Origin: Escherichia coli
GTDB lineage: Bacteria > Pseudomonadota > Gammaproteobacteria > Enterobacterales > Enterobacteriaceae
Length of the DNA stretch: 64,000 nt
Assembly (NCBI RefSeq): GCF_003334405.1
Contig: NZ_QOWM01000016.1
Reading direction: 5' to 3' (one strand)
Part shown: positions 9,240 through 10,891 of the stretch, one piece after another
Layout: the number at the start of each line of letters is the position of its first letter
How positions within the stretch are numbered: the stretch's first letter is position 1
The notes under the pieces: model-generated
The model's database searches: none
What the model was told of the DNA's origin: nothing
Seen by the model: only the letters and a program-made list of their open reading frames with translations
Position numbers and translations under genes: made by a program

Positions 9240-9839
9240 TCATTTATTCAAACCTTCAAGCGATTCAGATAGCGCCAGCTTAATCGGTTCAACAGCGAAG
9301 GTCAGCCCCTTTTCGCCGTTGTCCGCGACAACATAACGCAGTGCACCTTCTGTCTCGGTGTAATAACGTTTGTTTTTCCCCGCCGTTAGTAGCGACTGCA
9401 GTTTTTTCTGGCTTTGTGTTTTGGTCATTAATGGGGTGAGTGTGCGGATCACCGCTGCCATGTATTCCTGAGCTTTCGCTTTCGCGGCTTTTTGCTCTGG
9501 CCCCTGGATGGGTAGCCAGGTCATTTGAATGCTTTTGATTTTTAAGGTACCGCGCTCCAGCGCTGTAGAAGCATACAAGTTCTCATTAATTTTACTTGCA
9601 GCACGAGTGAGATTGGCTTTGTCGGGACTGCTGTCGATGGCACGAAATTCGTTCAGTGGCAGGCTGGGATTCTGGCTGTTAAAGTCTTCTCGAAACTGGC
9701 TGATGGAGAGATCGAAAGTAGGGGCTCCAGCCAGCAGATAAGGCGCGGTCGTTGCCGTATCTGGTGTTTGTGCATGCGCCGCTGTTGTAACGGTTAATGC
9801 AGAACATAAGAGAAAAAACAGCGTACACCCTGGCTTCAT
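9240..9839 (-). CDS. yiiQ: uncharacterized secreted protein YiiQ (DUF1454 family)
   Basis: ORF 199 aa with N-terminal signal peptide (MKPGCTLFFLLCSALTVTTAAHA); name by synteny and recall. Confidence 0.85.
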   Translation of the reverse strand: MKPGCTLFFLLCSALTVTTAAHAQTPDTATTAPYLLAGAPTFDLSISQFREDFNSQNPSLPLNEFRAIDSSPDKANLTRAASKINENLYASTALERGTLKIKSIQMTWLPIQGPEQKAAKAKAQEYMAAVIRTLTPLMTKTQSQKKLQSLLTAGKNKRYYTETEGALRYVVADNGEKGLTFAVEPIKLALSESLEGLNK

Positions 9840-9939
9840 TGACAGTACCTTTTGTTATGACTGGCTCCGATTAAAACGATATCTGTCGCCCTTGTCAAAA
9901 GGGTAGAATCCTGGAAAAGACAACCATCAAGGAACTTAC

Positions 9940-10380
9940 ATGACCATACAGCAATGGTTATTCTCATTTAAAGGGCGTATTGGACGCCGTGATTTCTGGA
10001 TTTGGATAGGCCTGTGGTTCGCAGGCATGCTGGTGCTTTTCTCACTGGCGGGTAAGAATCTACTCGATATTCAGACCGCGGCGTTTTGCCTTGTGTGCTT
10101 GCTCTGGCCAACAGCGGCAGTAACTGTTAAGCGCTTGCATGATCGCGGGCGTTCCGGCGCATGGGCATTTCTGATGATTGTGGCGTGGATGCTGCTGGCG
10201 GGTAACTGGGCGATTTTACCGGGTGTCTGGCAATGGGCGGTGGGGCGTTTTGTCCCGACGTTGATTCTGGTGATGATGCTTATCGATCTTGGTGCGTTTG
10301 TTGGCACACAAGGCGAAAATAAATATGGTAAAGATACTCAGGATGTGAAGTATAAAGCCGACAATAAATCAAGTAATTAA
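9940..10380 (+). CDS. yiiR: uncharacterized inner-membrane protein YiiR (DUF805 family)
   Basis: ORF 146 aa, several hydrophobic helices. Confidence 0.85.
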   Translation: MTIQQWLFSFKGRIGRRDFWIWIGLWFAGMLVLFSLAGKNLLDIQTAAFCLVCLLWPTAAVTVKRLHDRGRSGAWAFLMIVAWMLLAGNWAILPGVWQWAVGRFVPTLILVMMLIDLGAFVGTQGENKYGKDTQDVKYKADNKSSN

Positions 10381-10591
10381 CCTTTAATATATCTCTTACT
10401 GCTATTTTTTTCCGGGATTGTTATTTCCACGATGCAAATGACAATACCCGGAAAATCCTTCTGAACTCTTCACCTTAAGCAATATCAAAAAAAATGGTAA
10501 TCCATAAGATCATTACTTGTTTGTTCTTCCCTTAACGGCGCATTATTCTTAAGTCGTAATCGACAGAGAGGCGAATATACAGAGGTGCCCT

Positions 10592-10891
10592 ATGAAAGAT
10601 GTCGTAGATAAATGCAGTACTAAAGGATGTGCGATTGATATCGGTACGGTGATTGATAACGACAACTGTACCAGTAAGTTTTCGCGCTTTTTTGCCACCC
10701 GCGAAGAAGCAGAGTCTTTTATGACCAAACTGAAAGAGCTTGCCGCCGCTACATCCTCTGCAGATGAAGGGGCCAGCGTGGCCTATAAGATTAAGGATCT
10801 GGAGGGGCAAGTTGAGCTTGATGCGGCCTTCACTTTCTCATGCCAGGCCGAGATGATTATTTTTGAGTTATCACTGCGTTCGTTAGCTTGA
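10592..10891 (+). CDS. yiiS: uncharacterized protein YiiS (DUF406/UPF0381)
   Basis: ORF 99 aa [30 protein letters not shown]...; 27 bp upstream of uspD, likely co-transcribed. Confidence 0.85.

Follow-up and report, generated by a model that had tools for sequence, protein, structure and literature searches.

Three genes of Escherichia coli described as conserved but of no assigned function, yiiQ, yiiR and yiiS, lie next to the stress gene uspD at positions 9240–10891 of the window analyzed here (the whole stretch of DNA under study, 64 kb in length). The initial annotation treated them as a cluster and mentioned three further y-genes, yiiX, yijF and yijD, elsewhere in the window. This raises the question of whether yiiQ, yiiR, yiiS and uspD constitute a single unit, and of what can be said about the six y-gene products. 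Taken alone, the original observation restates that the genes are uncharacterized.

The window is E. coli chromosome, and the RefSeq annotation names identical genes. Inspection of the open reading frames, together with RefSeq, showed the coordinates initially assigned to the six genes to be exact, and profile searches upheld the families proposed for their products (DUF1454 for YiiQ, DUF805 for YiiR, DUF406 for YiiS, the YiiX family, DUF1287 for YijF and DUF1422 for YijD). The listed reading frames are real genes, not chance ones. A genome search found the 8500–12500 segment in all 5426 complete E. coli genomes inspected (5426/5426). A molecular function has been proven for none of the six proteins, and to that extent the description of these genes as lacking an assigned function is correct; it passed over the published NMR structure of YiiS and crystal structure of YiiX, the placing of DUF1287 in a papain-like class, and the published regulation of yiiS-uspD. 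Searches with PADLOC anti-phage profiles gave zero matches for any of the six proteins, and those against PHROGs phage families nothing beyond weak or irrelevant ones. The best overall explanation, to which we assign a probability of about 0.8, is that the six are genuine, annotated y-genes and that the 9240–10891 region consists of three juxtaposed pieces rather than one unit.

Three juxtaposed pieces between tpiA and fpr

The first piece would be yiiQ (9240–9839, minus strand), which encodes a 199-residue protein of the DUF1454/YiiQ family. The match to the Pfam model DUF1454 (PF07305) had an E-value of 5.5e-92 and covered model positions 2–189 of 189, i.e. its full length. A hydrophobic, signal-like N-terminus ending in AHA|QT was apparent in simple hydropathy analysis, in line with the secretion proposed earlier and with a periplasmic location. 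The gene directly precedes tpiA in all lineages examined across the Enterobacterales, the order to which it appears to be restricted. The structure prediction that the initial annotation had called for yielded a confident AlphaFold2 model (pLDDT 91.8), yet the search for a close solved relative of YiiQ found none, so the confident model comes with no informative relative. Residues Q82, R145 and E161 (numbered on the mature protein) form a conserved cluster.

The second piece would be yiiR (9940–10380, plus strand), separated from the divergent yiiQ by a 100-bp spacer (9840–9939) in which no consensus sigma70 site was detected at the scan threshold. Its 146-residue product matched Pfam DUF805 (PF05656) with an E-value of 9.5e-19 over model positions 1–111 of 111 and contains four hydrophobic segments by simple hydropathy; the two analyses thus agree with the earlier description of YiiR as a DUF805 membrane protein, probably located in the inner membrane. 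It shares its Pfam family, and a small multi-TM architecture, with the E. coli proteins YhaH and YhaI; a literature search on DUF805, yhaH and yhaI returned nothing functional. The gene appears to be optional: it is present in Salmonella, Citrobacter and lineage L086, and absent in lineages L087 and L088. No canonical terminator was found after yiiR.

The third piece would be an AT-rich, two-gene stress operon, yiiS-uspD, found in Escherichia only and inserted so that it runs exactly from the stop codon of yiiR to that of fpr (segment 10381–11350). Three observations delimit it: homology to Salmonella and Citrobacter ends at the yiiR stop codon, the uspD stop codon lies 4 nt from that of fpr, and the GC content of the segment is 0.36–0.48, as against about 0.50–0.59 in its flanks. 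Parsimony, applied to the few outgroups at hand, suggests an insertion in Escherichia. The only terminal repeats found around the segment were short ones expected by chance, and there is therefore no evidence for a mobile-element mechanism.

Gene order in other genomes showed that these genes travel separately, contrary to the idea of a yiiQ-yiiR-yiiS(-uspD) cluster. The order tpiA-yiiQ-yiiR-yiiS-uspD-fpr was found only at the three Escherichia loci among 81 DUF406 loci, and the same three of the 81 were the only ones in which yiiS is paired with uspD, a pairing that is thus not evolutionarily conserved. In Salmonella and Citrobacter, fpr is followed by yiiR, the divergent yiiQ and tpiA, with neither a yiiS/DUF406 gene nor a uspD/Usp gene at the locus, while distant lineages of the Enterobacterales show the order fpr-yiiQ-tpiA and lack yiiR. 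Conversely, none of the neighbors from the yiiQ/yiiR/uspD locus was found within 5 kb of the DUF406 gene at the 78 loci outside Escherichia. The model implicit in the initial annotation, in which a periplasmic protein (YiiQ), a membrane protein (YiiR) and two cytoplasmic ones (YiiS and UspD) make up one linked envelope-stress cluster, could appeal to the adjacency of the genes in all E. coli genomes, to the induction of yiiS-uspD by sigmaE envelope stress and to the fact that the products cover three compartments. Besides the retention of yiiQ and yiiR without yiiS and uspD, of yiiQ without yiiR, and of DUF406 genes without any of these neighbors, it has against it that the regulator YdeO induces yiiS-uspD but not yiiR (PMC4222967). 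The one-cluster model is largely refuted by synteny, and we consider it very improbable. In practical terms, yiiQ, yiiR, yiiS and uspD should not be handled as one system.

Expression of the yiiS-uspD operon

The genes yiiS (10592–10891) and uspD (10918–11346), the second gene of the operon, lie on the plus strand; the uspD product matched the NCBIfam UspD equivalog model with an E-value of 2.4e-99. The spacing between them had been given as 27 bp; they are indeed close, and the spacer measures 26 nt (10892–10917). It contains an AAGGAG Shine-Dalgarno sequence at 10906–10911, and no terminator-like site was found in it. The common strand, the short spacer without a terminator and the shared regulation are all as expected for an operon. 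The co-transcription initially suspected, and the co-expression under stress proposed as a check, are in fact published: yiiS-uspD is a direct target operon of YdeO, which co-induces both genes (PMC4222967), and b3922-23 (yiiS-uspD) is an operon of the sigmaE regulon (PMC2731931), the sigmaE dependence of yiiS being reported also in PMC6941253. The main text of Rhodius 2006 does not mention yiiS.

Transcription of the operon would start in the 211-bp spacer between yiiR and yiiS, with uspD being read after the 26-nt spacer from its own Shine-Dalgarno sequence. Promoters recognized by sigmaE have the consensus GGAACTT at -35 and TCAAA at -10, separated by about 16 nt. A motif of this type, tGAACTc-N16-TCAAA, lies on the plus strand at 10463–10489, 103 nt upstream of the yiiS ATG. 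It was the single match to GAACT-N15-17-TCAAA on both strands of the 64-kb window; 0.41 matches are expected per window and at least one was obtained in 34 of 100 shuffled sequences, so that the motif alone is not statistically unusual. The 49-mer containing it was found, with no mismatches, in 4836 of the 5426 E. coli genomes. The -35 of K-12 reads GAACTC, about 11% of genomes carry a variant allele, and a spacer interrupted by IS1 also occurs. The -35 element was not conserved in E. albertii or in a divergent genome labeled as E. coli (L002), and therefore varies within the genus. The published membership of yiiS-uspD in both the sigmaE and the EvgAS>YdeO regulons, the former matched by the -35/-10 elements in the sequence, sets it somewhat apart: sigmaE regulon members are mostly envelope-biogenesis factors, whereas YiiS and UspD are small cytoplasmic proteins.

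Upstream of the sigmaE-type motif, a 48-nt palindrome able to form a hairpin (10408–10455; minimum free energy -22.1 kcal/mol, z -5.9) overlaps the published YdeO-binding region; it persists, with compensatory changes, in three Escherichia lineages. On both strands, a U-run precedes it and an A-run follows it, and it is therefore not a canonical terminator. No Rfam match was obtained for the yiiR-yiiS spacer at E <= 1. The YdeO box described in the yiiS promoter fragment is an ATTTCA inverted repeat (PMC4222967). With both a sigmaE-type promoter and a stretch bound by YdeO in its upstream spacer, the operon is induced by envelope stress as well as through the acid-resistance cascade EvgAS>YdeO. 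The yiiS-uspD pair is a stress module specific to the genus, and how it is regulated was known before this analysis.

The distant genes yiiX, yijF and yijD

The yiiX gene (24911–25519, minus strand) encodes a protein of the permuted papain-like (NlpC/P60) enzyme family. The secretion initially proposed agrees with the signal-like N-terminus detected by simple hydropathy. YiiX matched NCBIfam model NF007458 with an E-value of 1.1e-106 (354.8 bits, the cut-off being 216) and PDB entry 2if6 with an E-value of 5e-122. Its sole cysteine, Cys128, is the published catalytic one, and in the crystal structure (2if6) a fatty acid occupies the S1 pocket at this residue. The structure is that of a permuted NlpC/P60 enzyme, which in the periplasm would act on an acyl or lipid substrate via Cys128. 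In fact, 2if6 is the founding structure of the permuted papain-like group (YaeF/YiiX, LRAT/HRASLS, LnsA and Tox-Act1), with which YiiX has in common the permuted Cys/His active site and the hydrophobic S1 pocket that holds the fatty acid. While Tox-Act1 and TseH are secreted toxins, YiiX is a housekeeping periplasmic protein.

The yijF gene (34665–35282, minus strand) also codes for a protein with a signal-like N-terminus (simple hydropathy), as expected from its earlier description as secreted. The product matched Pfam DUF1287 with an E-value of 3.9e-74, and residues 123–179 gave a weak match to CHAP (E-value 0.0027). DUF1287 has been classed in the literature as a papain-like amidase of the NlpC/P60-CHAP group, with a Cys-His-His triad. 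In YijF, Cys74 is the sole cysteine, and His161 and His179 are present; on sequence grounds, C74/H161/H179 are a candidate triad with which YijF may act as a periplasmic NlpC/P60/CHAP-like amidase. The family placement, these three residues and the weak CHAP match link YijF to the canonical amidases of the group; unlike these, it has neither a solved structure nor a sequence relative in the PDB, a search of which returned no match even at E <= 10. Both YiiX and YijF are probably hydrolases of acyl or amide bonds that act in the periplasm and depend on a cysteine; the single cysteine in each should be easy to mutate.

The third gene, yijD (59396–59755, plus strand), lies downstream of the regulatory gene fabR and encodes a 119-residue DUF1422 protein, probably of the inner membrane (NF008278, 203 bits with a cut-off of 127; Pfam DUF1422, E-value 5.1e-53). 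Four hydrophobic segments were found by simple hydropathy, in keeping with the four-TM topology first suggested. The 1-nt overlap with fabR does exist, though it takes the form TAATG (59394–59398, plus strand; TAA at 59394–59396 and ATG at 59396–59398) and not the ATGA reported at first; an AAGGA Shine-Dalgarno sequence lies inside the 3′-end of fabR. Outside E. coli, synteny was assessed in Cronobacter, where fabR and yijD are also adjacent; the homologue search provided only relatives with at least 78% identity. Deletion of yijD has been reported to produce wider cells, and YijD to form subpolar and septal clusters and to localize like anionic-lipid domains (PMC12282094). A role in membrane lipids, also speculated upon in that 2025 paper (PMC12282094), is plausible. 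YijD would be a four-TM membrane protein that is expressed together with FabR and probably takes part in membrane homeostasis. It might, more specifically, be FabR's regulatory membrane partner, for example sensing the state of the membrane or its acyl chains and modulating repression, with the overlap ensuring stoichiometric co-translation. The TAATG junction with its internal Shine-Dalgarno sequence, the adjacency in Cronobacter, the four-TM topology, and the deletion phenotype and localization are consistent with this; in Cronobacter, however, a 10-nt gap replaces the overlap, and the phenoprint of YijD connects it with tolR and lpp, not with lipid synthesis (PMC12282094). We regard a regulatory partnership with FabR as possible but not probable.

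The N-terminal cysteines of YiiS and the DUF406 family

YiiS is a 99-residue protein of the YfcZ/YiiS family, and it would be a small, cytoplasmic protein with an alpha/beta-plait fold. It scored 197.4 bits against NF007435 (cut-off 130) and 131 against TIGR00743 (cut-off 71), and matched Pfam DUF406 (PF04175) with an E-value of 1.3e-28. The chain of PDB entry 2k3i, the published NMR structure of YiiS, was near-identical to it, with one substitution (E-value 3.4e-59). The AlphaFold2 model contained strand 27–34, helix 37–54, strands 62–70 and 73–81, and helix 85–98, a beta-alpha-beta-beta-alpha core with the fold seen in 2k3i and 2jz5, preceded by a flexible N-terminal tail containing cysteines. 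Fold (2k3i, 2jz5 and 2khd) and DUF406 (UPF0381) membership are shared by the E. coli paralogue YfcZ and the Vibrio proteins VPA0419 and VC_A0919; no function is known for any member of the family.

The most conserved part of YiiS is its N-terminus, which was disordered in the NMR sample, prepared with DTT and without a transition metal (NMR paper). Residues 1–18 were invariant down to 47% identity. In an alignment of 33 sequences drawn from the YiiS, YfcZ and Vibrio subfamilies, C8 was invariant and C13 nearly so; the family-invariant residues of YiiS were C8, G18, F82, A86, E87, I90, F91, L93 and R96. C26 and C84 are not universal, both being missing in VC_A0919. The cysteine spacing differs among subfamilies: the tail of the YiiS subfamily, a 13-residue segment, has the pattern CxxxxC, that of YfcZ Cx8CCC and that of the Vibrio proteins CxxCxC. 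This conservation suggests, tentatively, that the functional center of YiiS might be the cysteine tail (C8 and C13), possibly together with C84 and E87 on the folded core, serving as a thiol site that binds a metal or a partner or acts as a redox switch. The tail would become ordered only on binding. AlphaFold often models true Cys4 metal sites with confidence; when run on full-length YiiS with a family-wide alignment, it gave residues 1–23 a pLDDT below 50, and a pre-formed intramolecular metal site is therefore unsupported. The tail did not pack on the core in this model, and a Cys4 site is therefore not claimed.

Two other readings of YiiS were considered. In the first, YiiS would be a small enzyme or metabolite binder acting through its core, with a surface around Glu87 (Glu89 in the PDB numbering) resembling that of pterin-4a-carbinolamine dehydratase (PCD/DCoH), and the tail would be incidental. 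The alpha/beta-plait topologies are similar, superposing on DCoH at 2.8 Å over 70 residues with conserved residues at an equivalent surface position (NMR paper), and E87, A86 and F82 are invariant across the family. Nevertheless, identity to PCDs is just 11–12%, the residues for catalysis and pterin binding have not been retained, YiiS is not a member of that family, and the alpha/beta-plait fold is very common (NMR paper). A core-only function, which also ignores the tail as the most conserved segment, seems unlikely. In the second reading YiiS would be dedicated to UspD, to which it would dock by its tail as a partner, chaperone or regulator, and the operon would encode a two-protein complex. 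The tight operon with its 26-nt spacer and co-induction fits this idea, and tails that are disordered yet conserved typically serve for docking; but no usp gene lies within 5 kb of the YiiS-like genes of Kluyvera, Klebsiella and Edwardsiella that encode identical tails, and yfcZ lies instead between fadL and fadIJ, upstream of the latter, whereas yiiS lies upstream of uspD in Escherichia only. The tail thus evolved and has been maintained without UspD, and we consider it quite improbable that YiiS is a dedicated UspD partner.

Neighbor clustering of 80 DUF406 loci, combined with NCBIfam annotation, found no partner common to different genera. The neighbors were rihA, asrC with a SoxS-like regulator, mlaA/fadI or a TetR-like gene. 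The gene neighborhood thus offers no clue to function, and the link to UspD is lineage-specific. A thiol site centered on the cysteine tail would nonetheless fit the stress physiology of UspD, which has been tied to superoxide defense and intracellular iron (review), the two proteins not being ancestrally linked. A broader reading, which taken as a whole appears rather doubtful, combines three proposals. DUF406 would be an unrecognized class of small proteins that act in the cytoplasm as thiol switches or metal binders, with the invariant, disordered N-terminal CxnC tail as their working element. Structural genomics would have overlooked its role, since reduced, metal-free samples were used for NMR and one construct was truncated. 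In Escherichia, a sigmaE/YdeO module coupling envelope and acid stress to cytoplasmic iron and redox homeostasis would have arisen by the capture of one DUF406 copy along with uspD. Finally, YiiQ would be a periplasmic fold without a solved relative, fixed beside tpiA across the Enterobacterales.

The genes, their families, the YiiS and YiiX structures, the regulation of yiiS-uspD, and the phenotype and localization of YijD were already known; the composite nature of the cluster, the Escherichia-only yiiS-uspD segment, the conserved N-terminus of YiiS and the YiiQ model are new. These are ordinary, known y-genes with one modest, testable lead, the cysteine tail of YiiS. Truncated or disordered in earlier structures, this conserved tail is the best experimental handle on DUF406, and a real function for any of these y-ome genes would close a gap in the best-studied bacterium.

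Composition of the tpiA-fpr region

The window covers the E. coli chromosome around tpiA, where RefSeq gives the gene order tpiA, yiiQ, yiiR, yiiS, uspD, fpr, glpX; a 4-kb part (8500-12500) was recovered, at ≥95% identity, from every one of 5426 complete E. coli genomes. The coordinates of all named ORFs proved exact. Profile searches and NCBIfam equivalogs bore out every family assignment, placing YiiQ in DUF1454 (E 5.5e-92), YiiR in DUF805 (E 9.5e-19), YiiS in DUF406 (E 1.3e-28), YijF in DUF1287 (E 3.9e-74) and YijD in DUF1422 (E 5.1e-53), with equivalog matches for YiiX, YijD, the YiiS-type DUF406 protein and UspD. 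In a simple hydropathy scan, YiiR and YijD showed four membrane segments apiece, and YiiQ, YiiX and YijF had signal-like N-termini, in line with their description as secreted. All six genes are ordinary entries of the E. coli y-ome and had been annotated before. The initial annotation held them to have no assigned function; a proven molecular function is indeed available for none of the six, but regulation, structures and phenotypes have already been published. Beyond this literature there are modest leads: a genus-specific origin of yiiS-uspD, an invariant cysteine tail in DUF406, and a model of YiiQ.

The genes yiiQ (9240-9839, minus strand), yiiR (9940-10380, plus) and yiiS (10592-10891, plus) had been presented as a single cluster, a view contradicted by synteny, which shows a composite region. 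A scan for DUF406 genes, using one genome per species, gave 80 loci, and the order tpiA-yiiQ-yiiR-yiiS-uspD-fpr was confined to those of Escherichia. None of the 78 non-Escherichia loci (Kluyvera, Klebsiella, Edwardsiella, Morganella and Vibrionaceae) had a UspD, YiiR, YiiQ, Fpr or TpiA homologue within 5 kb. The neighbours of the DUF406 gene varied with genus: rihA in Klebsiella and a divergent TetR-like gene in Vibrio. In two Edwardsiella loci (L006 and L011, both 5001-5675) the YiiS-like gene had asrC (anaerobic sulfite reductase) upstream and, 19 nt downstream, a gene for a 119-aa SoxS/RamA/MarA-like regulator of the AraC family, an operon context that differs from that of Escherichia and is possibly redox-related.

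Salmonella and Citrobacter carry glpX-fpr next to yiiR and the divergent yiiQ-tpiA, with no DUF406 or Usp gene; E. coli homology to them ends at the yiiR stop codon, and their yiiR-fpr spacer contains GC-rich REP-like palindromes. In all three more distant DUF1454 loci tpiA lay immediately downstream of yiiQ, and two of them lacked yiiR, the order being fpr-yiiQ-tpiA. The intervening 970 bp of E. coli (10381-11350) has a GC content of 36-48%, against about 50-59% in the flanks. By parsimony, this segment would have been inserted in the Escherichia lineage; no flanking repeats pointing to an insertion mechanism were found. At its far end, uspD (10918-11346, plus strand) and fpr converge with stop codons 4 nt apart (11344-11353), which leaves no room for a terminator, so that each transcript must run antisense into the other gene.

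Two further observations concern the surroundings. In a distant enterobacterial genome (GCA_000518745.1; locus L088, 2085-3058) glpX was called as two ORFs of 202 and 121 aa, each assigned to PF03320, a split suggestive of a frameshift or pseudogene. Downstream of tpiA, one genome of a Salmonella pair (L082/L083) has a sugar-phosphate/ABC-transport cluster and the other a cluster with a CitMHS transporter, a GntR regulator and an ADP-ribosylglycohydrolase; the tpiA 3′ flank is thus a variable insertion site.

Control of yiiS-uspD

The proposed yiiS-uspD operon is real, and co-induction of the two genes has been published. The spacer between them measures 26 nt rather than 27 bp, contains an AAGGAG Shine-Dalgarno sequence, and showed no terminator-like site. 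YdeO binds the spacer upstream of yiiS in vivo and in vitro and co-induces yiiS and uspD; a yiiS-lacZ fusion responds to it, while yiiR does not (PMC4222967). Drawing on three studies, PMC2731931 lists yiiS-uspD (b3922-23) among the operons of the sigmaE regulon, and yiiS mRNA is in routine use as a sigmaE reporter (PMC6941253).

The motif GAACT-N15-17-TCAAA had a single match in the whole window, both strands considered, at 10463-10489, correctly oriented and 103 nt upstream of yiiS. Since 0.41 matches per window are expected by chance, its weight derives from its location and the published sigmaE dependence. The exact K-12 49-mer containing it was present in 4836 of the 5426 E. coli genomes and absent from about 11% of complete genomes. 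In a divergent E. coli-labelled genome (L002) and in E. albertii (L003), CAATGT or TCATAT stands in place of the -35 element GAACTC (10463-10468); E. coli, L002 and E. albertii share the -10 region and the ~90 nt that follow at 100% identity. This pattern suggests that sigmaE control of yiiS-uspD may be lineage-variable, and that another conserved promoter or 5′-UTR element may lie downstream of the motif.

Just past the yiiR stop codon lies a 48-nt near-perfect palindrome (10408-10455; MFE -22 kcal/mol, z -5.9). Compensatory changes from U-A to C-G pairs maintain it in E. coli, L002 and E. albertii. On both strands it is preceded by a U-run and followed by an A-run, and it does not therefore qualify as a canonical terminator. 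The palindrome overlaps the published region of the YdeO box and YdeO-bound fragment. No Rfam family matched in the yiiR-yiiS spacer. Among complete E. coli genomes, at least two (NZ_CM149866.1 and NZ_LR898868.1) have an IS1 upstream of yiiS within this spacer (L090, 1976-2673, corresponding to 10381-10591 of the window), and regulation of yiiS-uspD by sigmaE and YdeO is expected to be altered in these strains.

YiiQ, YiiR, YiiX, YijF and YijD

DUF1454, to which YiiQ belongs, has few members, with 111 representatives at E ≤1e-3 among 1.84 billion proteins, and is restricted to Enterobacterales, reduced-genome symbionts included. The predicted YiiQ model is confident and has no informative relative. 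Three conserved polar residues, Q82, R145 and E161 in mature numbering, sit on adjacent strands, and the alignment and secondary structure suggest that they may form a binding surface. Down to 29% YiiQ identity, tpiA always followed yiiQ directly and in the same orientation, after a gap of about 80-115 nt (window 8365-9839; L082, L087, L088 and L089). In the window this gap contains only a weak terminator-like hairpin (9171-9188, minus strand), making read-through co-transcription possible. For YiiR, family and literature searches returned no functional information.

The crystal structure of YiiX (24911-25519, minus strand), 2if6, defines the permuted papain-like NlpC/P60 enzymes and has a fatty acid bound beside the catalytic Cys128; later work grouped the YiiX clade with acyl-hydrolases and acyl-transferases that act on lipids. 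The sole cysteine of YiiX is at position 128, matching the published catalytic residue. A comparison of YiiX (24914-25519) with PHROGs gave phrog_1128 (E 6.9e-10; 'enoyl-CoA hydratase/carnithine racemase-like', moron/AMG category), indicating that YiiX-like domains are present in phage genomes. The YijF family, DUF1287, has been assigned a Cys-His-His triad and a place in the NlpC/P60-CHAP group. YijF (34665-35282, minus strand) gave a weak CHAP match; its only cysteine is C74, and histidines occupy positions 161 and 179. The candidate triad C74/H161/H179 would agree with that assignment.

At the junction of fabR and yijD (59396-59755, plus strand), the reported 1-nt overlap stands, but not the ATGA motif attributed to it, since fabR ends with TAA, giving TAATG at the junction. 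In Cronobacter yijD still follows fabR with a 10-nt gap, so the overlap is not a conserved feature. A 2025 study described a morphological phenotype upon yijD deletion and YijD clusters at subpolar and septal sites; because yijD lies in the fabR operon, it speculated on membrane homeostasis, as did the initial annotation. Such a role for YijD is plausible.

The YiiS tail and the DUF406 family

The NMR structure of Shigella YiiS (2k3i) differs from the window protein by one substitution, and NMR structures are likewise available for Vibrio relatives (2jz5 and 2khd). The NMR authors described a common alpha/beta fold and a tentative DCoH-like ligand site around Glu89 (PDB numbering). The YiiS sample contained 10 mM DTT and no transition metal, and residues 1-28 were disordered. 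This disordered stretch is the protein's most conserved part: an 18-residue segment, together with C26 and the FSCQAE..IFELSLR segment, is invariant in enterobacterial homologues that share as little as 47% identity overall. Across 33 sequences of the YiiS, YfcZ and Vibrio subfamilies, C8 was invariant and C13 nearly so, with G18, F82, A86, E87, I90, F91, L93 and R96 also conserved, and the tail always had at least two cysteines, arranged as CxxxxC, Cx8CCC or CxxCxC. AlphaFold with the family alignment reproduced the core (pLDDT 74-88); residues 1-23 scored below 50, so the tail is not predicted to pack by itself.

Judged by conservation, the tail might constitute a thiol-based site, a reading to which we assign a probability of about 0.25: it could bind a metal, act as a redox switch, or become ordered upon binding a partner. 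UspD has a reported part in superoxide defence and iron availability, with which such a site is loosely compatible. That YiiS is a dedicated partner of UspD is nevertheless unlikely, since this tail also occurs in YiiS-like proteins whose genes have no usp neighbour.

E. coli also has yfcZ, annotated as a 'YfcZ/YiiS family protein' and located between fadL and fadIJ (L085, 2006-2290, in E. coli 042), directly upstream of the latter. In Morganella (L018-L023) the DUF406 gene lies between mlaA and fadI, directly upstream of fadI; this position matches that of yfcZ, and E. coli therefore has two paralogues, yiiS and yfcZ. The conserved link of yfcZ to anaerobic fatty-acid oxidation genes might inform DUF406 function more than the context of yiiS.
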